Of a stretch of 64,000 bases of DNA, positions 3,058-63,762 are shown one piece after another. Numbering within the stretch: position 1 is the stretch's first letter; the number at the start of each line of letters is the position of its first letter. Both the position numbers and the translations under genes were made by a program. Source of the DNA: Deltaproteobacteria bacterium (GTDB lineage Bacteria; Desulfobacterota; Binatia; Binatales; Binataceae); NCBI GenBank assembly GCA_003161515.1, contig PMOH01000316.1:1210-65209 (forward strand), written 5' to 3'. The notes beneath the pieces were generated by a model. The model was not told the origin of the DNA and ran no database searches. It saw nothing but the letters and a program-made list of their open reading frames with translations.

Positions 3058-4185
3058 GTGGGTGATGAACAGATGAACAGATTGAAGCCAGAGAGAAGAG
3101 CGGAAGTGGAGCGGCGGCTGCGAGCTGGGGAAGGGGTTCGACAGATTGGGGCAGAGACGGGGGTGTCGAAAGAGACGGTGAGTCGGATCGCGGCAGAGAT
3201 GGGGATTAAGTTCGGGGGACCAGGGAGCAGACCTCGAGCAGGGGGCCGTGGGGTAGCGGTTCCCGGGCCGCGCGAGCCCCGAATTGAATTAGGGCTGACG
3301 CCAATTCAAACTGGAGACCCGATTGGGGAGACGATCGAAGCTTTCGAGAAGCGCGTGGGGGAGATAGACACAGAGTTGGCAAGCTTGGGGCCGCGGGTCG
3401 AGGTGCTGCAGGCCGAGGCAGCTCAGTTGAGGAAGGCGACGGAAGCGCTGTACGAGGTGTTTCACACGAAACCATCGTCGGGAGCTTCGGGGACGATACA
3501 CCCAGCGGAAAGAAAAGGTCATTGGGGAGACGGCGAGGTCTATCACCCGACGTACGGAGGCGGCGCAGCGAAGCGGACGACGACTACGTGGTGGATCCGG
3601 TATTACGCGGATGGAAAGCGAATTGCGGAAAACGCGCATACGCGCGACGAGGGAGTGGCGCGCGCGTTGGTGCAGTCGAGGGGATTGACCCGCAGCATCG
3701 GGCCGAACTTGCGACAGCGGATCGCGGAGAGGAACAGTTCCGGAAGGGTGGCCGAGCGGATTAAGGCTCCGGTCCTGAAAACCGATGAGGGGAAACCCTC
3801 CGCGGGTTCGAATCCCGCCCCTTCCGCCAAAATATCTGGGAATGGCGGGGCGCCACCGCCGGAAAAACGTGCAAGCACGGCCGGCGGCGTCGAAGCCGGC
3901 GCATCAAGCTCCGTCACCCTGTCGGCGTCGATCGCGCGCGAGATCTCGAGCAGCATGACGGCGCGCGTCAAACCGCCGATACAGCCTGCACGGCCGCGGC
4001 CCAAGCCAGCAGCGCCTCAACTGAGCGCCAGCTTACCGGAGGGTTCGCGGCTGAAATGGTCGGACAAGCAGAACAAGATGGTGATGACGGCGCCGGATGG
4101 GACCGAATTTGCGCCTGACCCCGGCCACGGCCCGAAAGAGGCGAACAATTGGAAGCCGCACTTCGATGGACTCCGGAATGCGTAG
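3058..4185 (+). CDS. HTH DNA-binding protein with Pro/Gly/Ala-rich low-complexity C-terminus
   Basis: N-terminal resolvase/transposase-type HTH (VRQIGAETGVSKETVSRIAAEMGI) followed by a coiled coil. There is no DDE or serine-recombinase catalytic motif. Start is GTG at 3058 or ATG at 3073. Confidence 0.4.
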   Translation: MGDEQMNRLKPERRAEVERRLRAGEGVRQIGAETGVSKETVSRIAAEMGIKFGGPGSRPRAGGRGVAVPGPREPRIELGLTPIQTGDPIGETIEAFEKRVGEIDTELASLGPRVEVLQAEAAQLRKATEALYEVFHTKPSSGASGTIHPAERKGHWGDGEVYHPTYGGGAAKRTTTTWWIRYYADGKRIAENAHTRDEGVARALVQSRGLTRSIGPNLRQRIAERNSSGRVAERIKAPVLKTDEGKPSAGSNPAPSAKISGNGGAPPPEKRASTAGGVEAGASSSVTLSASIAREISSSMTARVKPPIQPARPRPKPAAPQLSASLPEGSRLKWSDKQNKMVMTAPDGTEFAPDPGHGPKEANNWKPHFDGLRNA

Positions 4186-7113: not shown

Positions 7114-7623
7114 ATGATCATTGACATCGGCGACGCCATCGTGGTGCTCGGAGATTCCGCGCTAAGTTGGGCCATCAGCAAAATTACCGGGCCAGTTTCT
7201 CATATTGGCTTAGTAACGAAGGTTGTGCCGGTCGTCGAGGTCACGCAGGCGCTCGGCGACGGCATCAAGACTCTCACGCTGCCCGAGACGATGGCGACCG
7301 CGCGCTACGGCTACTGTCTGCACGACAACCTCTTCCCGCTGGCCGATCGCCAAAAAATGGTCGCTTGGGGCTTGAAGCAACTCGGAACTCCGTACGCATT
7401 TGCGGATCTGGCGCTCGAGGCCATCGACGCGCTCACCGGAAGCGAGAAGGCCAGCATTTTCTTCGATCAAGACGGCGCCGATATTTGCAGCCAGTATTTT
7501 TCGCTCGCGGCGATCCAAGTCGGGCGGTCTTGCGGTATCACGCCGCGCAAGGCGACTCCCTCGGACTGGCTTCATTATTCTCTGGCACAGACGAGCTGGT
7601 CGACGCAGCCGATCGCGAAGTAA
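7114..7623 (+). CDS. possible permuted papain-fold (YiiX/NlpC-P60-like) hydrolase
   Basis: 169 aa. The layout resembles the YiiX/DUF830 family (SHIGLV ... C..H). This is weak, by-eye similarity only. Confidence 0.3.
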   Translation: MIIDIGDAIVVLGDSALSWAISKITGPVSHIGLVTKVVPVVEVTQALGDGIKTLTLPETMATARYGYCLHDNLFPLADRQKMVAWGLKQLGTPYAFADLALEAIDALTGSEKASIFFDQDGADICSQYFSLAAIQVGRSCGITPRKATPSDWLHYSLAQTSWSTQPIAK

Positions 7624-7633
7624 GGGAAAGCGG

Positions 7634-8920
7634 ATGAAGATCGTGTTCGTGACGACCTGTAAGAATCGTGCCGCCCATCTGGCCAGAACGCTGCCGAAGA
7701 ACTTGGAGGACAATCCTCGATCGACGTTCCTGGTTCTGGACTATGGCAGCCAAGATGATTTGACATCTGTGCTGATGCCTTACCGGGACTTCAAGTACGG
7801 ACGGCTAGTTGTCTATCATTATCCGACCGACGGACCGTTCCGCATGGCCCACGCGAAAAACATGGCGCACCGGCTCGGAATCTTGGAAGGCGCCGACGTC
7901 TTGGTAAACCTCGACGCGGATAACTACCTCGGCGCCGGGTTCGAAGACTTTGTCGCGGAGAGATTTGAGAGCGACACGTTTCTCTGGTCCGGGCTGGTGC
8001 AGGGTCTCGGCCGCAAAATGCGGGGGGTCAGCGGCCGGATCGCGGTGACGCCGCAGGCGTTTCTCAAAGCCGGCGGTTACGATGAGAAGAAGTACGACAC
8101 TTGGGGGCCTGACGATAAGGATTTCAATGCCCGACTCTGTCACTTGGGCTACCGGCCCGTCCAGATCGATCGAAACTATCTGGCGGCGATCCCGCATGGC
8201 GATGGCGTGCGTTTTAAGGAGTACCCCGAGGCGCGTGAGAACGCGTTAGGAGAAGAGGCGGAACTGCCGCCGCCGGAGACCGCGGTCGCCAACTTTGGAA
8301 AGTTTGGCATGGGCGAGGTTCTCGGGCCCGGTGGCGCCCTGCAACTCGGCCCGATACCGACGCGCATCTTCGGAATCGGGTTGCACAAGACCGCGACCAG
8401 CTCGCTGCACGCCGCTCTTCAAATCCTGGGTTACGAGAGCGCTCACTGGGAGTCGGGGGCTTGGGCCAAAAGCGTCTGGGATGAAGTGCGCGCGGGAGGG
8501 ATTGCTCCGACCTTGGAGAAGTTTTATGCGGCGTCGGACCTGCCGATTAGCATTCTCTACAAAGAGCTGGATCGCGCGTATCCGGGATCGAAGTTCATCC
8601 TGACGATTCGGAATGAAGCCGAATGGCTGCGCAGCGTGCGCGATCACTTTTCGTACAAGAATCCGTTTCGGTGGGAATGGGACGTCTACCCGTTCAGCAA
8701 CGTGATCCATCAGGCGATTTACGGGCGCAAGACCTTCGACTACCACACCTTCCGGGCGCGCTATCGTTGGCACAACGCGGAAGTGATCGAGCATTTCAAG
8801 AATCGGCCCGATGATTTACTGGTGATGCGCACGCCGGCGTGGACAGATCTCTGCCGGTTTCTCGGAAACCCGGTTCCGAGCGTCGACTACCCGAGAAAAT
8901 TCGTAACTAACGGAGGATAA
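7634..8920 (+). CDS. bifunctional GT-A glycosyltransferase / sulfotransferase fusion protein
   Basis: ATG at 7634 with a GGGAAAG RBS. The N-terminal half has a beta4GalT/GT2-like GT-A fold with LVLDYGSQDD and a DAD metal motif. The C-terminal half has the sulfotransferase 5'-PSB P-loop GLHKTATSS and 3'-PB-like RNEAEWLRS. Confidence 0.5.
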   Translation: MKIVFVTTCKNRAAHLARTLPKNLEDNPRSTFLVLDYGSQDDLTSVLMPYRDFKYGRLVVYHYPTDGPFRMAHAKNMAHRLGILEGADVLVNLDADNYLGAGFEDFVAERFESDTFLWSGLVQGLGRKMRGVSGRIAVTPQAFLKAGGYDEKKYDTWGPDDKDFNARLCHLGYRPVQIDRNYLAAIPHGDGVRFKEYPEARENALGEEAELPPPETAVANFGKFGMGEVLGPGGALQLGPIPTRIFGIGLHKTATSSLHAALQILGYESAHWESGAWAKSVWDEVRAGGIAPTLEKFYAASDLPISILYKELDRAYPGSKFILTIRNEAEWLRSVRDHFSYKNPFRWEWDVYPFSNVIHQAIYGRKTFDYHTFRARYRWHNAEVIEHFKNRPDDLLVMRTPAWTDLCRFLGNPVPSVDYPRKFVTNGG

Positions 8921-50943: not shown

Positions 50944-52356
50944 CTATTTTCCTGCTGCCAGCCGCGTCATCAGCGGCTCGAAAAACTTGATTTTCACAGA
51001 CGCGCTGATGTCGACGCCCGCGACATCTTTGATGATTTTCTTGATCGCACCGATCGCGAGACCGGCCTGCTGGCCCACGGTGAACAGTTGCTTCTGCTGC
51101 TCCTTGGAGATCAGCTTTTCGCCGTCGGCATCCGAGGCGGGCGCAGTCGCTTCCTGCTTAGGAGCTTCCTGTTTCGGAGGTTCCTGCTGCTTGGGCGGCT
51201 CGGCTTTTTTCAGTTCTGCTTTCGGCGCCTCGGCCTTTTCTTTCTCAGGTTCCGGCTTCGCTTCCGACACGCCCTTGTGGCTCTCGAAGATCGCACCCGC
51301 ACGCTCGATGAATTTCGGGAGCTGCCCGCGAGTTAGCTCGAAGGTCTCACCGACCTTGAACTCTTCGAGGATGCCCGCCACTTCAGCCTCGGTGAATCCA
51401 CCGAGCGCCTTCTGTGCGAGCGCGTCCTGCTCGGGCGAGATCTTGGCGTTGGGGTTCGGGCGGTCTTCCGCCAACTTCTCGTCCTTCTTGACCTTCTCGC
51501 CGGTCGCCTCGGGCATCGCGGGCCCGCGCGCCTCGACGCCGGCTTGCGCGGCTGCTTCCTCGTCGCTCAGAGAGCCAGCAGGCAGCAGGTCCGAGAAGAT
51601 CGATTCCTTCGTACTGAAACCGTCCTTGATGGCGTTGTACGCGCCCGCGAGGCGACGCAGCTCGGGTTCCTTGCAGGCTTCGAGATTATGTCCGACGAAC
51701 TTCACGAGCGATTCCTTGGGCACACCGATCACACCGAAGCGTTCGATCGCCTTCGCGATGCGCTCGCTCAAAGGTCCGGCGTTCCTCTGGATCGTCTTTT
51801 TGCACTCGTTCACCGCTTCGTCGACGATATCGCCGGGTATCGCGCGCAGGATGCACGCGCGCAGCCGACGCGATCCCAAGTTGGCGACCATCTCATAGAC
51901 ATCGCGCCCATCGCGCAGCGGCTTGCGGCCGTTCTTGGTATCACGGAAATGCGGCACGACGAACTTTACCGACCAGCGATTGTTCGTCTGGAGATCCCAG
52001 CAGAACGCTTCGACGTCGGACATATTCCCGTGCTGGGCGAGCTCCTGGATGCCGCTGGACATATTGCCCCAGTGGCGCGCGAGGACCTCGGCCAAGCGAA
52101 TCGACGGGCCCTCGATCTCCTCGTCGCCGCGGGGGTATGCGTACAGCGCGTCTTCGGCGAGCCCGAGACGGCGGCACTCCTCGAGGATATTGTCGCGCGC
52201 GACGGCAATCTCGCGCGGGAATCGGCGGGCCATCAGAATCTGACCTTGGACTTCGGCGATTGCGCGCTGCTCATCGGCGCCGGCCATTGCCGAGCGCTCG
52301 CCGCCGCGGTCCGGGTGGATTAGAACTCGATCGTTGCTGTTATCGGACTCAGCCAT
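50944..52356 (-). CDS. putative recombination/ssDNA-annealing protein with Lys/Pro/Glu-rich linker
   Basis: 470 aa. An N-terminal roughly 300-aa globular domain is followed by a KPEPEKEKAEAPKAELKKAEPPKQQEPPKQEAPKQEA linker and a small C-terminal domain. The recombinase assignment is speculative. Confidence 0.3.
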   Translation of the reverse strand: MAESDNSNDRVLIHPDRGGERSAMAGADEQRAIAEVQGQILMARRFPREIAVARDNILEECRRLGLAEDALYAYPRGDEEIEGPSIRLAEVLARHWGNMSSGIQELAQHGNMSDVEAFCWDLQTNNRWSVKFVVPHFRDTKNGRKPLRDGRDVYEMVANLGSRRLRACILRAIPGDIVDEAVNECKKTIQRNAGPLSERIAKAIERFGVIGVPKESLVKFVGHNLEACKEPELRRLAGAYNAIKDGFSTKESIFSDLLPAGSLSDEEAAAQAGVEARGPAMPEATGEKVKKDEKLAEDRPNPNAKISPEQDALAQKALGGFTEAEVAGILEEFKVGETFELTRGQLPKFIERAGAIFESHKGVSEAKPEPEKEKAEAPKAELKKAEPPKQQEPPKQEAPKQEATAPASDADGEKLISKEQQKQLFTVGQQAGLAIGAIKKIIKDVAGVDISASVKIKFFEPLMTRLAAGK

Positions 52357-54455: not shown

Positions 54456-55183
54456 CGACACCCGAACTTGTAATGGCAGCAAGTGGCATTCTCTTCGGGG
54501 GCGGGGTGCTATTCGCGGAATTTCGACGACGTATAGTCGACGAGAAACAAGAATCTGCGGATAAGCTCGCGCACGTGAAGGAACTCAACGACGCAAAGTT
54601 AGAAGCGGCGAAAAATCATGCGAATCTGTCGGGCAAACTGGATATGGCGGCTCTCCTACAGAGTGTGCAGTTCCAGCACCTTCAAGGTGTCACCAAAACA
54701 GCCGCCGAATCGCCAGCAACCACCATCGAAGTAGCCAACAACACGATTCAATCCCTAAGCAACCAAGTCAAGGAATTGACGGAATACACTCGCCACGTCA
54801 CACATGATCAATTCCGTCGCTTTGGAGAAGCCGTCCCTAACATTTTGGCCCTAGAACGTGGCGACGGCCATGCATACTGGCGGGACTACGCTGGCGTTCG
54901 GATACTCTATTGCCACTACATCGAGTCGATTAACTATGCCCAAGAGCTGATGGGTTTATTCGGGGCCTCAGCGATCACGGTCACTAGTTGGGAAGACAAT
55001 AGCTACGAAGCACTTAATATTGCTGGCCTCAAATTGCTGATCGCCGATCCGGGCAACCCAACAGACAACAATGTCAAGACAATGGCGCTTCTTCGAGCAG
55101 CGGATATTCAATTTGAAGTCGAAAAGCGGGAGACGGACGCCCCCCTTATCTCAACGTTACGCGTCGGTCGGTGCGCGGGATGA
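54452..55183 (+). CDS. membrane-anchored coiled-coil protein
   Basis: Transmembrane segment (VMAASGILFGGGVLFA) followed by a coiled coil. Local GC is lower, so it could be a moron. Confidence 0.4.
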   Translation: MTTPELVMAASGILFGGGVLFAEFRRRIVDEKQESADKLAHVKELNDAKLEAAKNHANLSGKLDMAALLQSVQFQHLQGVTKTAAESPATTIEVANNTIQSLSNQVKELTEYTRHVTHDQFRRFGEAVPNILALERGDGHAYWRDYAGVRILYCHYIESINYAQELMGLFGASAITVTSWEDNSYEALNIAGLKLLIADPGNPTDNNVKTMALLRAADIQFEVEKRETDAPLISTLRVGRCAG

Positions 55184-56028
55184 ACTATCAGCACCTTCGC
55201 GCACTCGTAGTCAACGACTACGCGATCAACAATCAGCGCTCGGATGTATTGAATGCCCGCCTGAAGCACCTCGACGACGCCTTCGCCTTGTCAACAGGCT
55301 CTATCTCGGCTGTGGATATCCAGTCATATACCGCCGGTAGATTAGCTCAAGGTACAGCCCCCGGAACCGTCAACCAAGAGTTAGCTGCGCTGCGCCGGAT
55401 GTTCAGTCTTGCGGTCAAACTCCGTCTGATCACTCTCGATCAAAAGCCTTGGATTCAACTTCTTCGCTTGCGCAACGCGCGCAAAGGCTTCTTCGAGAAA
55501 GACCAGTACGAGAGTGTCAAACGTGCTCTGCCAGAGCCGTATCGCCCGATCGTCACCACGATGTTCATCACGGGTTGGAGATGCCAAGAAGTTTTGTCCC
55601 GGCAGAAAAAGCATCTCGACCTAGCTAATGGATGGTTGCGGCTCGACCCAGGTGAGACCAAAAATGGCGAGGGCCGCGAGTTTCCGCTGACCCGCGATCT
55701 CCGCGCGTGTCTTACTCCGCAGCTCGCGGAAGTCAAGGCTTTTGAGCATCGCACGGGCAGGATCGTGCCGTGGCTTTTCCACAGGGACGGCGAGCGGATC
55801 TGTGGATTCAGGCGCGCTTGGGAGAACGCTTGCAAGCAGGCCGGCGTGCCGGGGCGGATGCTTCACGACTTCCGGAGAACAGCCGTTCGTAACATGGAGC
55901 GGAAAGGTGTCCCGCGCTCGGCCGCGATGAAGATGGTTGGAATGCTGACTGAGTCGATCTATCGTCGCTACGCGATCGTTGATGAGACTGTGCTGAAGGA
56001 GGCCGGCGCTAAGCTGGATGCATTATGA
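55171..56028 (+). CDS. int: tyrosine recombinase (phage integrase family)
   Basis: Catalytic-domain motifs are present (R in ...TGWRCQEV, LHDFRRT with His/Arg, and a terminal ESIYRRYA with the nucleophilic Tyr). At 285 aa it is short, with a core-binding but no arm-binding domain. Confidence 0.7.
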   Translation: MRGMNYQHLRALVVNDYAINNQRSDVLNARLKHLDDAFALSTGSISAVDIQSYTAGRLAQGTAPGTVNQELAALRRMFSLAVKLRLITLDQKPWIQLLRLRNARKGFFEKDQYESVKRALPEPYRPIVTTMFITGWRCQEVLSRQKKHLDLANGWLRLDPGETKNGEGREFPLTRDLRACLTPQLAEVKAFEHRTGRIVPWLFHRDGERICGFRRAWENACKQAGVPGRMLHDFRRTAVRNMERKGVPRSAAMKMVGMLTESIYRRYAIVDETVLKEAGAKLDAL

Positions 56029-56420
56029 TGGCCGAGGCTGACCACAGACTGCTGGCGACGCTGGCCTACCCTGAGTACAAGCCGGGGCAGATGTGCGAAG
56101 ATGTTATGGCTGCCCATCGGCACGAGCCTGTCATCTGCATGAAGCACAATAAGTCTTATCCCCACGAAATCCCGCCGCCTCCCGTAGACACCTATGAGGC
56201 GATGGGGCGGATCATCGCGGCGCTGTTCAAGCGGGGCCTCTACCTAAGCCCTAGTCGTCGTCATTTCCCGGTCTGGACCGGTGTCTGTCTCATGCAAATG
56301 GATAATGACTACCCAGAAGAGCCTGTATTGATCGTGCAGAAATCAATCACCAATTCCACTGACTTCATCGCCGCCGTCTGCGAGGCCGCGTTGCAGGTAC
56401 GGCGCAAGGAGCAGGTATGA
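56025..56420 (+). CDS. hypothetical protein
   Basis: 131 aa, ATGA-coupled. Confidence 0.35.
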   Translation: MMAEADHRLLATLAYPEYKPGQMCEDVMAAHRHEPVICMKHNKSYPHEIPPPPVDTYEAMGRIIAALFKRGLYLSPSRRHFPVWTGVCLMQMDNDYPEEPVLIVQKSITNSTDFIAAVCEAALQVRRKEQV

Positions 56421-56638
56421 ATAGTCATCACCCAAAAGGTTTACGATATACGATGACGATCCTACGGAGCGACGGCACCTACTGGGTCAAGGAGCATGTC
56501 AAACACGTTATCATCAAGCCGGGGTTCGTCGTGGTCTACGAGGGCGAGCATGGCGTGGATCGTGTGCAATCGTGGATACCGAACGAGAGGATCGATCACT
56601 TTACTCTCGAAGAGGAACGCAAGGAACAAAGTAAATGA
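56417..56638 (+). CDS. hypothetical protein
   Basis: 73 aa. Confidence 0.35.
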   Translation: MNSHHPKGLRYTMTILRSDGTYWVKEHVKHVIIKPGFVVVYEGEHGVDRVQSWIPNERIDHFTLEEERKEQSK

Positions 56639-57138
56639 GCGATTACACGAAAGACTTGATTGTAGAAGCTCGTGCTACCTGTGTCCGTGAGCATTCTAAG
56701 GAACCTCACCCCTGTCTGGAGCGGGCGTTGGCACTAGCCCTCGAAGCTGAGTCCGCGAAGGTGAAACGAGTGGAAGCGCTGCAAAAGCAAATGCACGATT
56801 GGAATGCCACCTCTGTAGGCGTCGTTTGGGTACGCGGTTTAGTAGATGTTTGCCTCGCCCCACCGAACAGCGGCGAGCAGGCAATGAGGTGTGAAGTCCT
56901 ACGCGGTTGTGTCGGAGATACAGGTCATTTCGGCGAGCACACGTTCGGGCCATCCACCCCTCCCGCACCCACTGAGGCCGCGACGCGGGAGCACCTAATC
57001 AAGAAAATCAATGCTATTGTCGATCCGTTCTTGTATCTACGGAATATCGACAATACGCGACCTATGGGCACCGGCTCTTGGGAACAGGTGGTCGTAGACT
57101 TAGCCGACGCCATCATCGCAGTAGCGAGGGCCAAATGA
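56635..57138 (+). CDS. hypothetical protein
   Basis: 167 aa. Confidence 0.35.
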   Translation: MSDYTKDLIVEARATCVREHSKEPHPCLERALALALEAESAKVKRVEALQKQMHDWNATSVGVVWVRGLVDVCLAPPNSGEQAMRCEVLRGCVGDTGHFGEHTFGPSTPPAPTEAATREHLIKKINAIVDPFLYLRNIDNTRPMGTGSWEQVVVDLADAIIAVARAK

Positions 57139-57410
57139 GCCAGCTCCGCCGCGAAAGTCGAGAGGACGGTTTCAAGCCTTTCGAGCCTAAGCCCCTTCCC
57201 TCGTCGGCAGTTTTAGCCGCCGTCCGCATAGCTGGTGGCCCCGACAAAGTCGCTGAACTCCTAGGAGTACATCGAAGTCAGGTTTACCGATGGATAAGGG
57301 CGCGGACTATGGCGCGGGCGCGTTATCAGTACGTTGAGACGCTGGCGGATTTGTCCGGCGTCGATATGCGCCTACTAGGCGTGAAAGGCTTGACATCCGC
57401 GCGCGACTGA
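57135..57410 (+). CDS. Cro/YdaS-like HTH DNA-binding protein
   Basis: AGGPDKVAELLGVHRSQVYRWI matches the YdaS/Cro HTH pattern. The ATGA overlap at 57135 couples it to the upstream gene. Confidence 0.45.
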   Translation: MSQLRRESREDGFKPFEPKPLPSSAVLAAVRIAGGPDKVAELLGVHRSQVYRWIRARTMARARYQYVETLADLSGVDMRLLGVKGLTSARD

Positions 57411-57611
57411 GTATCATCGCGGGCAGACTGGCTGATCCCCGGTCATAGGTTCGCGGCGCGCGGCCCGGCTCTGGTTTGTCTCAACCCCAAATCACCCGGC
57501 CGCGATGCCATAGGGTTGAAATGCGGAACGATTCAGACATAGACCCATCACGCGTCGAAAAATCATGGGGTAGTTGCGCCCGCGTGATCCGATCGTGGCG
57601 GAGAGGAGGCG

Positions 57612-58457
57612 GTGATGAGCGGATTGGTGATGGGGCTCGCCCTGCGGGTATCACAAGCCGAAGGTTATGATCGTCTCGTGCTCGTAGCGATCGGTGATTG
57701 CTGCGAAGACGACGGAACCGGCGCATGGCCGAGTATTCCCACCCTCGCAAAGCGCGCGCGTATCAGCGAGCGCACCGTCCAACGAAGTATTCAGGAATTG
57801 CAGGCCCTCGATGAGCTTGATGTAGAGAAGGGGGCCGGGCCTAAAGGAACCAACCTCTATTCGATCAACGTCGGGCTGCTTCTGGATCGGCTTCAAGCCG
57901 AGCGGAGAGGTGACTCTGTTGTCACCGGTGCCACAGCGTCACCCCCGTCAACGGCGACACCGGGGGGTGACACAGCTATGGCACCCGATCCGTCCACAGA
58001 TCCGTCAATAGAGAAAGAACATCACAGATCTAGGTTTCCTTCTTCTCCTAAGAGACAGAAGAAAGTAACTAACCCTTTGGACCCCGGCACCGATACATTC
58101 GAATTTCTATTTTGGCCGATTTACCCTCGGCCAGAGAAAAAACAAACCGCCTTGCATGAGTGGGCGTTGATGACCGACGACGAGCGCCAGCTAGCGATCG
58201 ACGACGTGCCGCAGCGCATCGCTAAAAATTGGCACGGGACGGAAACCGGCATGATCCCTCACCCGAGTTCATACCTGCATCAGAAGCGATGGACCGAGCC
58301 GCTACTCGACCTCAAGGGCAACGGCCATCACCAACGCGAAAATGCGTCCACGCGCTTCAAACAATGGGTCGACAAGGAAAGAGCCAATGGAAGCCAACCA
58401 AGCCTTAGCATTAACGGCAATGTTGACAGCAGCCTATCCCTCATGGGCAAGCGGTGA
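57612..58457 (+). CDS. replication initiator/organiser protein (N-terminal winged HTH plus phage conserved C-terminal domain)
   Basis: N-terminal HTH_36-like segment (DRLVLVAIGDCCEDDGTGAWPSIPTLAKRARISERTVQRSIQEL). The C-terminus (FWPIYPRPEKKQTALHEWALMTDDERQLA) resembles the Phg_2220_C domain. Confidence 0.5.
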   Translation: MMSGLVMGLALRVSQAEGYDRLVLVAIGDCCEDDGTGAWPSIPTLAKRARISERTVQRSIQELQALDELDVEKGAGPKGTNLYSINVGLLLDRLQAERRGDSVVTGATASPPSTATPGGDTAMAPDPSTDPSIEKEHHRSRFPSSPKRQKKVTNPLDPGTDTFEFLFWPIYPRPEKKQTALHEWALMTDDERQLAIDDVPQRIAKNWHGTETGMIPHPSSYLHQKRWTEPLLDLKGNGHHQRENASTRFKQWVDKERANGSQPSLSINGNVDSSLSLMGKR

Positions 58458-58920
58458 AGAGACCTTCAGGCTCTACCAGATCTTTTTGCAGGAGCTCGAT
58501 GCGCGCGACGGTCGCGCTGCCGTGATGGAGATTATCCGATCACCGCGCGAATTCGCGCCTCCGGTCGGAATACTCCTCGACCTCGGCAAACAGTTCGAGA
58601 GGAGACGGCTCGAACATGAATTTTGGCGCGAACGCTGGTACGAGCCCGGCAGCATAGCTTACACACCCGACGGCCAACGATGCGCGGCTGATGCCGATGG
58701 CCATATGCAGCCCGCCCCTGAGCCCGAACCTCCCGCTATAAGCGATCAGCGGCGCGACGAGATAGCTCAACTCGTCGGTCAACTAGCCGAGCAGGCTGAG
58801 CAACCACGAATTCGAGCACGAATTGACGGCGCGGCACGTAACGATGCGCTCCGCCGCGGATTGCGCATTGGCGATATTCTGAGAATCGATCACAAATCCA
58901 AAGGAGAATCGAATCAATGA
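58387..58920 (+). CDS. hypothetical replication-module protein
   Basis: ORF overlapping the end of the initiator gene. Start is ambiguous (58342, 58387 or 58420). Confidence 0.3.
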   Translation: MEANQALALTAMLTAAYPSWASGEETFRLYQIFLQELDARDGRAAVMEIIRSPREFAPPVGILLDLGKQFERRRLEHEFWRERWYEPGSIAYTPDGQRCAADADGHMQPAPEPEPPAISDQRRDEIAQLVGQLAEQAEQPRIRARIDGAARNDALRRGLRIGDILRIDHKSKGESNQ

Positions 58921-59315
58921 GTTGTTCACACGCAGGCTGTACGAACTGCCGAGAGTTGGAAGCGCAAGAAGCGCAAGTTCAGTGGAACGAGACGCTCTGG
59001 GCGCTACGCGCATCGGAGATACTGACGCTGGTGACCCGAGCGTACCACCTTGAACACTTCGACCTGACCGGCCCGCTGCGCACAGCGCATATTGCGAGTG
59101 CGAGACAAATCGCGTGCTATCTTTTGCGACGGCTCACGGGATATAGCTACCCCATGATCGGCGAGATACTGCACCGCGACCACTCGACGATAATTCACGC
59201 GTACAACGTGGTGGCTAAACAGATGGCCATGATGCCGGATCGAAAGCGTGTCATCGACGCGATGGCTTACGCGATCGAGCATCCGGCGGAACAGCAAAGG
59301 CAGGTGGCGGTATGA
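58917..59315 (+). CDS. DnaA domain IV (DnaA C-terminal DNA-binding) homologue, standalone
   Basis: ARQIACYLLRRLTGYSYPMIGEILHRDHSTIIHAYNVVAKQMA reproduces the DnaA-box-binding HTH signature (R.IAMYL.R.LT..S...IG..FGRDHSTV.HA). It has no AAA+ domain. Confidence 0.55.
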   Translation: MSCSHAGCTNCRELEAQEAQVQWNETLWALRASEILTLVTRAYHLEHFDLTGPLRTAHIASARQIACYLLRRLTGYSYPMIGEILHRDHSTIIHAYNVVAKQMAMMPDRKRVIDAMAYAIEHPAEQQRQVAV

Positions 59316-59341
59316 TTCCGAAGGGAGCCCGAGTTTCGAAA

Positions 59342-59364
59342 GGGAATTATTGATTTGAGTCCCT
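59342..59364 (+). repeat. TIR (left, cassette A)
   Basis: GGGAATTATTGATTTGAGTCCCT. Confidence 0.85.
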
Positions 59365-59371
59365 TATTACG

Positions 59372-60025
59372 ATGAAGCCGTATTTTGAAGAGGCGGGGAT
59401 TACGATTTTTCACGGTGACTGCCGCGAAGTGCTCGGAATGTATTCGGGCTTTATCGTTACCGACCCGCCTTACGGTATCGACCATCCGACCGACTATAGG
59501 GCGCGGGGGCGGGGTGCGTTGGCTGAGTGTGCTGATTATCCGCGCGTGGCTGGCGATGCCGAGCCTTTTGAGCCGTCTTTCTTGCTTGACCGACCCTGCG
59601 TGCTATTCGGAGCCAATTACTTCGCTGACAGGCTGCCGCCGTCGTCGGGCTGGCTAGTCTGGGACAAGATGCGCCCACATGGCCTCGACCAAGCGACTGC
59701 GGAACTGGCGTGGTCGAATTTCGTCAAGGGTGTTCGGGTGTTTCGCTATCTCTGGAACGGCATGATCAGGGATGGCAACGAGGCATTAGAGCACCCGACA
59801 CAGAAGCCGGTCGCGCTAATGAAATGGATTCTGGCGCTGAAATGGACGCCTGCGGGGCGGGTAATTGACCCCTTTATGGGCGCAGGCTCGACCCTAATCG
59901 CGGCGAAAGACATGGGGCGCGAGGCTGTCGGCATCGAACTCGAAGAACGGTATTGCGAAATTGCGGCACGGCGATTGAGCCAGTCAGCGATGCAATTCGG
60001 GACGCAAAATGAATCAAGGGACTAA
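59372..60025 (+). CDS. beta-class amino-DNA methyltransferase (N6-adenine or N4-cytosine)
   Basis: Motif IV TDPPYG near the N-terminus and motif I (FMGAGSTLIAAKDMGR) near the C-terminus. This circular permutation defines beta-class N6A/N4C MTases. Confidence 0.7.
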   Translation: MKPYFEEAGITIFHGDCREVLGMYSGFIVTDPPYGIDHPTDYRARGRGALAECADYPRVAGDAEPFEPSFLLDRPCVLFGANYFADRLPPSSGWLVWDKMRPHGLDQATAELAWSNFVKGVRVFRYLWNGMIRDGNEALEHPTQKPVALMKWILALKWTPAGRVIDPFMGAGSTLIAAKDMGREAVGIELEERYCEIAARRLSQSAMQFGTQNESRD

Positions 60026-60218
60026 ACTATATAATTCCCTTTCGAAAGCGGTTGGGGAGTACGACCGCCTGGTCACCGAGATGGTGGGCGTTTCCAATGT
60101 CTTAGTGCGACGCGGCGGCACCTCACGCAAGAATCTGTGGCGGGAAGAATCCCCCGAAGAGGCGATGAAGCGGTTCGGGCAGCCAGCGCCGACGAATCCG
60201 CTGCATGTGAACCGATGA
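60009..60218 (+). CDS. hypothetical small protein (N-terminus encoded by TIR; start doubtful)
   Basis: 69-aa ORF. Its first roughly 13 codons lie in the right TIR and TSD of cassette A. Confidence 0.25.
   Translation: MNQGTKLYNSLSKAVGEYDRLVTEMVGVSNVLVRRGGTSRKNLWREESPEEAMKRFGQPAPTNPLHVNR
60017..60039 (-). repeat. TIR (right, cassette A, degenerate)
   Basis: The reverse complement reads GGGAATTATATAGTTTAGTCCCT. Ends are conserved and the centre has diverged. Confidence 0.6.
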
Positions 60219-60448
60219 CTCTACCTGTCGACCCGAGAGTCCGGCGCTTGGAACCGGAAGTGGTTTCGCCGGAGACCGAACGCGAAGCGCTCCACGTTCG
60301 TTTCCAATTCGACACAATCTACGAACATGGCTGCGGCCTAGCTCTCGGCATCGGTCACATCGAGAGCAGCGACCACAGCTATGCCGTAACGATGCGGCGA
60401 CTAGCCGACGGACGTGTCGAGGTTCTGCACGTCCGGGAGATGCGGTAA
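60215..60448 (+). CDS. hypothetical small protein
   Basis: 77 aa from the ATG at 60215. ATGA overlap upstream and TAATG overlap downstream. Confidence 0.3.
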   Translation: MTLPVDPRVRRLEPEVVSPETEREALHVRFQFDTIYEHGCGLALGIGHIESSDHSYAVTMRRLADGRVEVLHVREMR

Positions 60449-60777
60449 TGGCAATTCGAATCCAGCGGAAGCGCACGCGTGGTTGGAAAGCTCCTGAAGG
60501 CGCTGTCTACGTCGGGCGTCCGACCGAATGGGGGAATCCTTGGACGGTTGGGCTCGTGGCCTGCGGCTGTCGCTCAGCAGGCGAATGCGATCACAATTGC
60601 TTTCGCGTCGAAACCGCCGAAGAGGCCGTCGATATGTACCGTCGGTGGGCGTCCGGTTGGAGCGATGAGAAAAAGCAGCGTTGTCGAGATCAATTGAGTG
60701 GAAAAGATCAGATGGACTGGTGTTCACTCGACAAGCCCTGCCACGCGGACGTGACGTTGGAGATCGCGAACGCATGA
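60448..60777 (+). CDS. DUF4326-family protein
   Basis: RKRTRGWKAPEGAVYVGRPTEWGNPW is the characteristic DUF4326 N-terminal signature. Confidence 0.5.
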   Translation: MAIRIQRKRTRGWKAPEGAVYVGRPTEWGNPWTVGLVACGCRSAGECDHNCFRVETAEEAVDMYRRWASGWSDEKKQRCRDQLSGKDQMDWCSLDKPCHADVTLEIANA

Positions 60778-61362: not shown

Positions 61363-61385
61363 GGGAATTATTGATTTGAGTCCCT
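61363..61385 (+). repeat. TIR (left, cassette B)
   Basis: GGGAATTATTGATTTGAGTCCCT. Confidence 0.85.
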
Positions 61386-61394
61386 CGCCGCACA

Positions 61395-61862
61395 ATGCAA
61401 ATCCGTAGAGCACAACCATGCGAAACGCGAAAACTAAAAGACTGGATCGCAGCGAATCACTACCTGCAATCCGCTCCTCCGGGATTTGTGCATCTCTACG
61501 AGTTCATCGAGGGCAAGGAATTGATCGGCGGGATGATTTTGGGCCGCCCATCCGCGAAGCAATACAACCCCGACAAAATCCTCCAACTTCACCGCGTCTT
61601 TTTCATCGACGATACCGCCCCGAATGTCGAGAGTCAGGGACTTTCCATGATGCGCCGCATGGTTCGGGTTTGGATACCGCAGATTCGCGGTCTCTTGTCC
61701 TATTCCGATCCAAGCATCGGCCACGAAGGGACGATTTACGAGGCCGATATGTGGTGTCCGCTCGGCCTGACCGACGAACACTGGGGCTACGGGTGGAAAA
61801 GCCGCGAAGGACGGCGCGATCAACGGGTCAGTCGCAAGATGCGATGGTTTAGAACGCCATGA
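61395..61862 (+). CDS. hypothetical protein (cargo of cassette B)
   Basis: 155 aa with a hydrophobic-core-like pattern (IAANHYLQSAPPGFVHLYEF ... GGMILGRP). No motif I can assign. The stop overlaps the next start (ATGA). Confidence 0.4.
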   Translation: MQIRRAQPCETRKLKDWIAANHYLQSAPPGFVHLYEFIEGKELIGGMILGRPSAKQYNPDKILQLHRVFFIDDTAPNVESQGLSMMRRMVRVWIPQIRGLLSYSDPSIGHEGTIYEADMWCPLGLTDEHWGYGWKSREGRRDQRVSRKMRWFRTP

Positions 61863-62215
61863 AGGGACTCAAATCAATAATTCCCAAAGTAAGTCTCGGC
61901 GGCGAGAGCGGCAACAAGTACGGCGCGCGCAAGACAAGCTGCGGGAAGCACATCCATGATTCCAATCGCGAAGCTCAACGATGTGCAGAACTGCGGCTCA
62001 TGGAGAAGGGCCGCTTGATCGCTGATTTGATATTCCAGCCAGCGTTTCCCATGTGGTACGGCGACAACCTGATCTGCACTTACGTCGCTGATTTTATGTA
62101 CCACGAGGAAGATGAACTCGTTGTCGAAGACGTGAAGGGTAAAGCCACAGATAGTTACATTATCAAGCGCAAAATGCTCAAGGCATTTTATGGAATCACG
62201 GTGAGGGAGACTTGA
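61859..62215 (+). CDS. DUF1064-family protein (restriction-endonuclease-like fold)
   Basis: NKYGARKTSCGKHIHDSNREAQR ... YVADFMY ... VEDVKGKATDSYIIKRKMLKAFYG matches the DUF1064 pattern. The first 9 codons (MKGLKSIIP) are encoded by the right TIR of cassette B. Confidence 0.5.
   Translation: MKGLKSIIPKVSLGGESGNKYGARKTSCGKHIHDSNREAQRCAELRLMEKGRLIADLIFQPAFPMWYGDNLICTYVADFMYHEEDELVVEDVKGKATDSYIIKRKMLKAFYGITVRET
61863..61885 (-). repeat. TIR (right, cassette B)
   Basis: AGGGACTCAAATCAATAATTCCC, a perfect inverted copy. Confidence 0.85.
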
Positions 62216-62856: not shown

Positions 62857-63053
62857 AAACTCTACGTCCAAAGAAAAAACCAATCTGGGGGATGCTTATC
62901 TATCGCACTACCAGCAAAGGCGTAGACCACATGCCGGAGATCCTGAATCAGATGACCGCCCAAGAGGCTCGGCAAGCGAAGGTCTGCATGGCGGGCGGCA
63001 ACACGATGGTCGTGTTCTACCCGATGCTCAAGAAAGGGGAATTATTGATTTGA
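62853..63053 (+). CDS. hypothetical small protein
   Basis: 66 aa. Its last codons run into the left TIR of cassette C. Confidence 0.3.
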   Translation: MKTLRPKKKPIWGMLIYRTTSKGVDHMPEILNQMTAQEARQAKVCMAGGNTMVVFYPMLKKGELLI

Positions 63054-63059
63054 GTCCCT
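63037..63059 (+). repeat. TIR (left, cassette C)
   Basis: GGGAATTATTGATTTGAGTCCCT. Confidence 0.85.
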
Positions 63060-63076
63060 CAATCAAAAACTCTCTC

Positions 63077-63757
63077 GTTTGGTTAGACCTTTGCTCCGGC
63101 CTAGGTGGCGCGAGTCAGCCGGCGTTGGATCGCGGTTGGAGGGTTATCAGAATCGACCTTGACTCTCGCTTCAGGCCCGACATCGTGGCCGACGTTCGCG
63201 CGCTGCCGCTCAAGGGCTATTGGGAATCTAGGGCGCTCCGCATCGATGTGCTGTGGGCGAGTCCGCCTTGCCAGGATTTTAGCAAACACGGACTGCGTTG
63301 CTTCTATCCGAATCCGCCGGAGCCGGATTTATCAATCGCTAACGCCGTCGGGGCGTTGATCAACCGACTTCAACCGCGTTTCTGGGTGATTGAGAACGTG
63401 TGGGCGGCTCGTCCGTGGTTCACGAAGCTGTTCGGTCAGGTACGCGCCAAGCCGCCAGGCCACGCGCTGTGGTCCAACCTCGCATTCCTGCTTCCGAACA
63501 TCGAGCCGCACAAGAGTTCCAGCGTCCAACTTAAGTCGAGAGGCATCGGAGCGATTCCAGGAAAACCAGGCGATTGGCGCAAGACCTATCGAGGCCTTAG
63601 AGAGAGGCATGCCACCGGAATAAGACCCGTCAAAGCTACGCCGGGGCGCTGGATGGGCAGTCACCACGATATGACGCCAGCGGAAGCAGCCGTAATTCCC
63701 TATCCGATCGGTGAGGCCATCTGCGCAGCGGTGGAGCGAAGGGACTCAAATCAATAA
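63077..63757 (+). CDS. DNA cytosine-5 methyltransferase-like protein (short)
   Basis: Motif I (DLCSGLGG), motif IV (SPPCQDFS, the catalytic Pro-Cys) and motif VI (ENV). It is only about 227-235 aa with no clear motifs IX/X or target-recognition domain. Start is ambiguous (TTG at 63050 inside the TIR, or TTG at 63077). The stop TAA lies inside the right TIR. Confidence 0.5.
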   Translation, partial: VWLDLCSGLGGASQPALDRGWRVIRIDLDSRFRPDIVADVRALPLKGYWESRALRIDVLWASPPCQDFSKHGLRCFYPNPPEPDLSIANAVGALINRLQPRFWVIENVWAARPWFTKLFGQVRAKPPGHALWSNLAFLLPNIEPHKSSSVQLKSRGIGAIPGKPGDWRKTYRGLRERHATGIRPVKATPGRWMGSHHDMTPAEAAVIPYPIGEAICAAVERRDSNQ

Positions 63758-63762
63758 TTCCC
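63740..63762 (-). repeat. TIR (right, cassette C)
   Basis: AGGGACTCAAATCAATAATTCCC. Confidence 0.85.

Follow-up and report, generated by a model that had tools for sequence, protein, structure and literature searches.

The 64-kb stretch of contig PMOH01000316.1 analyzed here (hereafter the window) belongs to a temperate, myovirus-like phage with a G+C content of about 58%, and its replication operon encodes a 132-aa protein that is a true DnaA domain IV by profile, by Protein Data Bank (PDB) sequence matches and by predicted fold. We tentatively favor the view that this standalone domain is a non-productive competitor for the DnaA boxes of the host rather than a recruiter of replication to a phage origin. 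Standalone phage proteins of this kind are already annotated, common and functionally uncharacterized; new here are a subfamily marked by a Cys/His knuckle, the retention of DNA contacts that HdaB does not share, and comparative evidence suggesting that the target boxes lie outside phage DNA.

An earlier, sequence-only reading had taken this open reading frame (ORF) for a DnaA domain IV homologue without the AAA+ or oligomerization domains and had set a profile check against Bac_DnaA_C as its test, which the protein passed. Residues 34–97 match PF08299 (Bac_DnaA_C; Pfam) across positions 3–67 of the 69 in the profile, with E=1.8e-20 and 73.2 bits (gathering cutoff 31.5), and the peptide IACYLLRRLTGYSYPMIGEILHRDHSTIIHAYN cited in that reading is present in the translation. 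The NCBIfam model of full-length DnaA (TIGR00362) scored 69.6 bits (cutoff 343.9), matching in C-terminal positions alone (346–431 of 437), so the protein lacks the AAA+ part and corresponds to a C-terminal piece of DnaA; Pfam found neither Bac_DnaA nor DnaA_N (domain I) in the 132 residues. PDB sequence matches (phmmer) were all to DnaA: the Mycobacterium tuberculosis DnaA DNA-binding domain (DBD; 3pvp, 4e-11), Bacillus subtilis DnaA (8btg, 1e-8), Escherichia coli domain IV (1j1v, 1e-6) and Aquifex DnaA. An AlphaFold2 (AF2) model made from a 17-sequence subfamily alignment (mean predicted local distance difference test score [pLDDT] 88, predicted template modeling score [pTM] 0.75) has the DnaA-DBD fold: Foldseek aligned it with 3pvp (target template modeling score [TMt] 0.90, root-mean-square deviation 1.4 Å, 93 columns) and with 1j1v (TMt 0.89, 1.3 Å), the two structures together spanning 1.3–1.5 Å over 91–93 residues. 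Assignment to an unrelated helix-turn-helix (HTH) family fails, since the best non-DnaA fold match came only at E>1, LuxR-type and sigma folds only at E>2, and HTH profiles other than that of DnaA, LuxR included, stayed below threshold, as did the Pfam families HTH_38 (19.9 bits, cutoff 27) and Sigma70_r4_2 (14.1 bits, cutoff 25.7).

Residue equivalences were taken from an alignment to E. coli DnaA, whose contacts are known from the 1J1V complex (Table 1). R399, R407, Q408, D433, H434, T436 and H439 are identical in the query, and T435 is replaced by Ser. This Ser is no deviation, because 77 full-length, Walker A-bearing DnaAs in a scan of one genome per species share it within an RDHST(V/I) motif. 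When 1.84 billion cluster representatives were searched exhaustively with HMMER, 9,781 clusters passed E≤1e-3. Of the 150 top-ranking ones, 110 have a length of ≤200 aa, which makes them standalone; the first full-length DnaAs come in at about E=2e-11. The short relatives keep R407 without exception (110/110) and nearly always H434 (109), R432 (103), Ser or Thr at the T435 position (103), T436 (103), D433 (100), R399 (99) and H439 (91), a pattern indicating that their DNA-binding residues are under selection. The best full-length matches are DnaAs of Ca. Binatia/Binataceae, with 46–52% identity over the domain (27–32% to model DnaAs) and the helix RDHSTVIHAYNLIAR where the query has RDHSTIIHAYNVVAK. 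Ca. Binatia appears to be the closest DnaA-bearing lineage, and these matches are the sole, indirect pointer to a host lineage. Since the contact residues of DnaA are conserved, the protein should recognize TTATCCACA-type boxes; isolated domain IV binds a DnaA box unaided in crystal structures 1j1v and 3pvp, and the query very probably binds DnaA-box DNA as well.

Chromosomal and phage DNA differ sharply in their content of such boxes. The 77 dnaA loci of RDHST-type DnaAs (846 kb) hold 183 perfect TTATCCACA boxes against 5.5±2 expected (34-fold enrichment) and 656 boxes with ≤1 mismatch against 146 expected; the canonical box is evidently the cognate site of these DnaAs. In Ca. Binatia (loci L084–L090, L114, L118 and L120), perfect or near-perfect boxes form head-to-head pairs with an 11-bp offset (TTATCCACAnnTGTGGATAA) 50–100 bp upstream of dnaA, which looks like a conserved autoregulatory palindrome of the lineage. 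The window, by contrast, has two perfect boxes, both in structural genes. At ≤1 mismatch it has 8 (about 6 expected), and at ≤2 mismatches it has 92 (94±9 expected). The sequence-only reading had called for this search; it gave no enrichment and no dense cluster by consensus, relaxed consensus, ≤1 or ≤2 mismatches or cluster statistics, and no recurring operator-like box was seen near the early-region promoters, nor any in the leader 57420–57610. In 66 non-redundant viral loci, scanned for 6 kb to either side of the gene, boxes with ≤1 mismatch were likewise not enriched (99 against 112±12 expected), and 7 perfect boxes were counted against 3.9±1.7 expected.

The gene's placement in a replication module, also part of the sequence-only reading, was borne out. 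Its start codon shares bases with the stop of the ORF before it (ATGA; CAATGAGT) behind a Shine-Dalgarno AAAGGAG, and it is translationally coupled to an operon of an initiator and a small 'helper' ORF. The initiator matches PHROG 270 'replication initiation protein' at 1.5e-20 and PHROGs 8540 and 391 'replication initiation O-like' at about 1e-16, and its C-terminus matches PHROG 9327 'primosomal protein'. The call of an initiator upstream therefore stands; the helper is syntenic and has no assignable family. No convincing terminator was found between the strong promoter-like site ahead of the operon and the end of the DnaA-IV gene.

In DnaA, domain I is responsible for self-association and for recruiting helicase, and filaments form and DNA unwinds by way of the AAA+ domain; having neither domain, the phage protein cannot initiate replication. 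Because the phage has no box array, its likely targets would be host boxes at oriC and the dnaA promoter. We therefore picture a protein that would be made early, on one transcript with the O-like initiator, and that would occupy these host boxes non-productively. Assembly of host DnaA would be blocked and new rounds of chromosome replication would stop, DnaA-controlled transcription would be perturbed, and host helicase and replisome would be freed for a phage origin fired by the phage's own initiator. The sequence-only reading had offered two roles, a decoy on host boxes and a recruiter to a phage origin. The first gains from the conserved contacts, from the canonical boxes near the closest DnaAs and from the phage's own initiator, while the second is weakened by the lack of box enrichment or clusters in the window and the 66 viral loci. 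Small phage-related antagonists of DnaA are known: YfdR of an E. coli prophage (PMC4776307) and YqaH of the B. subtilis skin element (bioRxiv 10.1101/2020.11.18.388090) bind the DnaA protein, whereas the query, which has no sequence relationship to them, is proposed to compete for DNA sites instead.

Several points weigh against competition for host boxes. The box comparison covered dnaA loci of RDHST-type DnaAs on the chromosomal side and only the ±6 kb around each gene on the viral side; and a group of four boxes around the integrase gene of the window (see below) leaves room for a phage-directed role. WhiB-DnaA_C fusions among the relatives point to use as transcription factors, and HdaB, the only characterized standalone DnaA-IV protein, acts by protein-protein titration and not through DNA (PMC7049699). 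Our literature search found no experimental study of any phage member, only annotations.

Alternatively, the protein may be a phage transcription regulator that uses the DnaA-IV HTH as a generic DNA reader, possibly with altered or relaxed specificity, and switches phage or host promoters (early to late, or lysis-lysogeny), with the knuckle as a structural or redox/metal-sensing module. This is possible, though we think it unlikely. DnaA itself is a transcription factor, a 'late transcriptional activator' is a neighbor in two of the viral loci, and the query has weak similarity to HTH_38 and sigma-70 region 4. Among its closest relatives, P0005, P0008 and P0034 fuse WhiB, an Fe-S transcription factor, to two DnaA_C domains, and the joining of a metal or Cys module to DnaA_C recurs. 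Furthermore, four boxes with ≤1 mismatch (TTATCCGCA(-), ATATCCACA(-), TTTTCCACA(+) and TTATCCCCA(+)) lie in the integrase/lysogeny region 54556–56164, a cluster reached in 1 of 200 simulations. Two of the four are conserved in the sister contigs L001 and L002 (described below). As a signal, however, this group is weak: the boxes are spaced 400–750 bp apart within coding sequence, mostly that of the integrase, and enrichment at ≤2 mismatches was not significant after correction for scanning (62 of 300 simulations). It was all that surfaced when boxes of a phage origin were sought. Against a regulator, the DnaA base-contact set is strictly conserved, which points to specificity for the canonical box; furthermore, the early promoters have no such box repeated in the manner of an operator, the leader has none, and the gene sits inside a replication operon and not at a regulatory junction. 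The one striking repeat nearby, a 23-nt sequence directly 3' of the gene, was considered as an operator or RNA hairpin for the DnaA-IV protein; its fold z-score was -0.76, and it proved to be the end of a transposon.

An origin accessory factor, which would bind the phage origin, cooperate with the O-like initiator and replace host DnaA, seems to us improbable. Many plasmid and phage origins need host DnaA, and the gene lies directly downstream of the initiator and helper, coupled to them in translation, as its relatives lie in replication modules across phages. PHROG 27829 is named 'DnaA-like replication initiation protein', and a PF08299 gene present in most HTVC010P-type pelagiphages was guessed by its describers to act in phage replication initiation (Du et al., PMC8477408). 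The box counts nevertheless run the other way: two perfect boxes in the window, both structural, and 8 against about 6 expected at ≤1 mismatch, with no cluster, and no enrichment around the gene in the 66 other phages, whereas chromosomal origins were enriched 34-fold in the same test. Domains for melting DNA or for recruiting helicase are also missing from the protein.

Still less probable is a protein decoy like HdaB, which would mimic the surface of domain IV and titrate Hda/regulatory inactivation of DnaA (RIDA) or other partners independently of DNA, for example toward over-initiation. HdaB, a short standalone DnaA-IV-like protein of Caulobacter and other Alphaproteobacteria that interferes with replication control, is chromosomal and induced in stationary phase; it has lost R399 and kept L422, binds and titrates HdaA, blocks RIDA and is toxic through over-initiation (Frandi & Collier, PMC7049699). 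It is the sole experimentally characterized protein of this architecture that we found. The Hda contact L422-P423 corresponds to Y78-P79 in the query, and an F/Y-P pair in 95 of the 110 short relatives and in Binataceae DnaA suggests that a host-like surface has been kept. Unlike HdaB, however, the query is phage-borne, has a knuckle and a Tyr at the L422 position, and keeps R399 (as R55) with the other DNA contacts, as do 99 of the 110 relatives; a pure protein decoy is disfavored because such contacts would be unnecessary for one. NF004687 (PRK06030-type, alphaproteobacterial), which we take to be the HdaB model, scored 13.7 bits (cutoff 181; E=0.053), and membership of the query in HdaB was rejected on this ground and on the retained R399. 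We know of no Hda-type RIDA in the candidate host lineage, which also speaks against such a decoy.

One feature that sets the query apart from DnaA had not been mentioned in the sequence-only reading. The first 11 residues of the query, MSCSHAGCTNC, hold a Cys/His cluster; all sequences of the 17-member subfamily alignment have C8 and C11, and nearly all have C3. The pattern varies (C-x-H-xx-C-xx-C, CxxCxHC or CxxCxCxxC) and always supplies four Cys/His ligands within ~9 residues, so that it is probably a small Cys3His zinc (metal) knuckle. It is present in about 18 of the 150 top-ranking cluster representatives (clustered at 50% identity), and its conservation appears to mark a subfamily of standalone DnaA-IV proteins. 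We infer that it may serve stability or dimerization on paired boxes. DnaA domain IV, as in E. coli 1J1V or M. tuberculosis 3PVP, is like the query in fold, basic loop, HTH and contact residues; DnaA has no such N-terminal knuckle, and the query, phage-encoded and without domains I–III, would neither bind ATP, oligomerize, unwind DNA nor load helicase. Between knuckle and domain runs a predicted helix that corresponds to the DnaA domain III–IV connector, as Foldseek aligns 123–127 columns with full-length Aquifex DnaA (1l8q, 2hcb).

The C-terminal ends of these proteins were noted separately. The query ends in RQVAV, many subfamily members in a short -AA or -VA (VAA, LAA, RAA), and the Binataceae DnaAs of loci L084–L088 likewise in NAA or HAA. 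Such Ala-rich tails resemble ssrA/ClpX-type degrons and could, as a speculation, be proteolysis tags.

Relatives are numerous in viruses. In IMG/VR, at least 264 viral contigs encode one; the best 80 of these comprise 78 ORFs of 75–274 aa, one full-length protein (485 aa) and one failed ORF call. When the two nearest ORFs on either flank were surveyed in 67 non-redundant viral loci, the commonest matches were to DnaB-like helicases (9), primosomal proteins, initiators (O-like or other), DnaD-like loaders, DNA methyltransferases, exonucleases and resolvases. One relative with a Cys knuckle (P0009) lies downstream of an AAA_25 helicase/primase and two N6_N4 methyltransferases. Also among the closest relatives are P0003, P0006, P0013 and P0014, with 2–5 tandem DnaA_C domains and no AAA+, which suggests box arrays as the target of the wider family; domain IV appears to have been redeployed repeatedly outside DnaA. 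These tandem proteins and the WhiB fusions are the closest relatives outside the subfamily, and differ from the query in having several domains or a full WhiB where it has a single domain and an 11-residue knuckle. The best PHROG match of the query is 16091 (E=3.5e-4), which has no annotated function; PHROG 30669 (E=3.5e-3) and PHROG 27829 (E=4.8e-3) match weakly. The pelagiphage and PHROG 27829 proteins resemble the query as standalone PF08299 domains of early or replication regions whose function is guessed, but the similarity to those PHROGs is weak (E=5e-3), and the query belongs to a knuckle subfamily often ending in -AA and to a temperate myovirus-like phage.

The phage assignment of the window comes from its genes for a large terminase, major head protein, tail sheath, tape measure and baseplate and from a tyrosine integrase at 55171–56028. 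No close relative was found among deposited phages (GenBank/INPHARED), the ORFs at the left end of the window gave no family matches, and PADLOC gave nothing meaningful on a relation to defense systems. The features discussed here are collected in Table 1.

Table 1. Features in and around the DnaA-IV gene (window numbering), with residue equivalences to E. coli DnaA
Feature	Position	Strand	Evidence or remark
Sigma-70-like promoter, TTGACA-16-TATCAT	57390..57417	+	Consensus scan, 11/12; putative function; ahead of the replication operon
Phage replication initiator (winged HTH, lambda-O-like/primosomal)	57612..58457	+	Pfam HTH_36, 2.5e-10; PHROG 270
Small ORF ('helper') between initiator and DnaA-IV	58387..58920	+	Synteny; alternative starts 58342, 58387, 58420
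Standalone DnaA domain IV gene	58917..59315	+	ORF, 132 aa; PF08299; fold; ATG/stop overlap upstream
N-terminal Cys/His knuckle codons (C3, H5, C8, C11)	58923..58949	+	Putative metal site; subfamily alignment
Long helix, residues 9-42 (34 residues), knuckle to domain	58941..59042	+	AF2 secondary structure
DnaA domain IV core (residues 34-97; basic loop R55 and HTH)	59016..59207	+	Pfam envelope; R55, R63 and Q64 as R399, R407 and Q408
Recognition-helix motif RDHSTIIHA (R87-A95)	59175..59201	+	Near-identical to Binataceae DnaA RDHSTVIHA
Contact residue R55			R399 in E. coli DnaA
Contact residue A62			P406
Contact residue R63			R407
Contact residue Q64			Q408
Contact residue R71			K415
Contact residue R87			R432
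Contact residue D88			D433
Contact residue H89			H434
Contact residue S90			T435
Contact residue T91			T436
Contact residue H94			H439
Non-autonomous cargo element	59342-60039		N6/N4 methyltransferase; 8-bp target-site duplication TTTCGAAA
Non-autonomous cargo element	61363-61885		Mom-like; 8-bp target-site duplication AAAGTAAG
Non-autonomous cargo element	63037-63762		C5-methyltransferase-like; 8-bp target-site duplication CAAGAAAG

Three metagenomic contigs (L001, L002 and L171) are 98.5–100% identical to the window over the replication module and share its gene order. The DnaA-IV gene is in-frame in all three and differs by a 9-nt in-frame indel and one D/E change, as would be expected of a constrained coding sequence. 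Relative to L001 and L171, the window has a 9-nt in-frame tandem duplication (GAAGCGCAA ×2, giving EAQEAQ) at 58965–58982, within the connector helix. A 116-aa 'short' variant in L171 was considered as a natural loss of the knuckle; the DNA is identical, and the variant is a gene-caller start artefact. The helper is kept in the three contigs, where it is called as 166 aa; only 3 homologues of it are known. Pfam, PDB and fold searches gave it no assignment, and a candidate identity, a helicase loader like SPP1 G39P, was not supported (no Pfam or PDB match, AF2 pLDDT 58, no fold match). Adjacent 20-nt direct repeats (GACCGACGACGAGCGCCAGC and GATCGACGACGTGCCGCAGC) at 58172–58215, within the initiator gene, could be iterons of an origin inside that gene, as in lambda. 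A 1.27-kb segment at 56063–57336, containing small ORFs and a Cro/CII-like HTH ORF (57078–57410), is missing from L001 and L002; its junction lies at GACGCTGG microhomology, and it is therefore a recombinational indel and not a transposon.

The 23-nt repeat directly 3' of the DnaA-IV gene, GGGAATTATTGATTTGAGTCCCT, occurs in five exact copies in the window (0 expected); it proved to be the inverted repeat found at the ends of IS1595-family elements. In the early region, three non-autonomous elements with such ends each carry one DNA-modification gene as cargo, the first of them an N6/N4 methyltransferase beside the DnaA-IV gene. L001 holds the empty site of this element, so the methyltransferase is a recent insertion and not a partner; a functional link between the two genes was thereby ruled out at this locus, though methyltransferases are nonetheless frequent neighbors of such genes elsewhere. 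In the three sister contigs, the DnaA-IV gene is followed by a 66-aa ORF whose ATG overlaps its stop codon. In the window, that ORF is split by the insertion (59312–59353 and 60009–60218), and its distal remnant is a 69-aa ORF at 60009–60218 that starts in the right end of the transposon. The same repeats flank other cargo in unrelated viral contigs (L166: 5111–5582 and 6882–7962; L165: 10396–11476) and, at L164: 1126–2912, a true IS1595 transposase (PF12762, 2e-43). The cargo elements look like mobile cassettes that move epigenetic or anti-restriction genes between phages.

Other genes of the window are given here for completeness. The early region also contains a DUF4326 gene (60448–60777, 3e-16), a DUF1064/PHROG 190 Holliday-junction resolvase gene (61859–62215) whose annotated start lies inside a transposon repeat, and a leftward 470-aa ORF at 50944–52356(-) that very strongly matches PHROG 3657 (2e-91), whose function is not annotated. 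A tRNA-Ser(TGA) gene at 3742–3829, overlapped by a spurious long ORF (3058–4185), may be carried by the phage or belong to an attachment site. The 506-aa ORF at 7400–8920, unusual in a phage, has both a sulfotransferase domain (PF17784, 2e-32) and a segment resembling glycosyltransferase 7C.

Considered as a family, the Cys-knuckle DnaA-IV proteins might form a widespread phage group that silences host origins, an extension of our proposal that we regard as possible but rather doubtful. They would then be the first anti-initiation factors that leave DnaA, DnaB and the loader unbound and instead compete for the boxes, both at oriC and in the dnaA promoter; the knuckle would give a metal-dependent dimer matching the host's head-to-head pairs, and the -AA tail would give the protein a short lifetime. 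DnaA boxes are, to our knowledge, almost universal in bacteria. If the proposal is true, a minimal box occupant that does not initiate would be a simple, portable means for a phage to stop replication of the host chromosome, and could be used as it stands as a tool or as an antibacterial lead. The domain itself would come as no surprise to a specialist. The family is large, with thousands of clusters and hundreds of viral contigs, and lies consistently in replication modules; the vague label 'DnaA-like replication initiation protein' becomes a testable choice between a competitor for host boxes and a phage-origin factor, and the former may be a general mechanism of phage control over host initiation.

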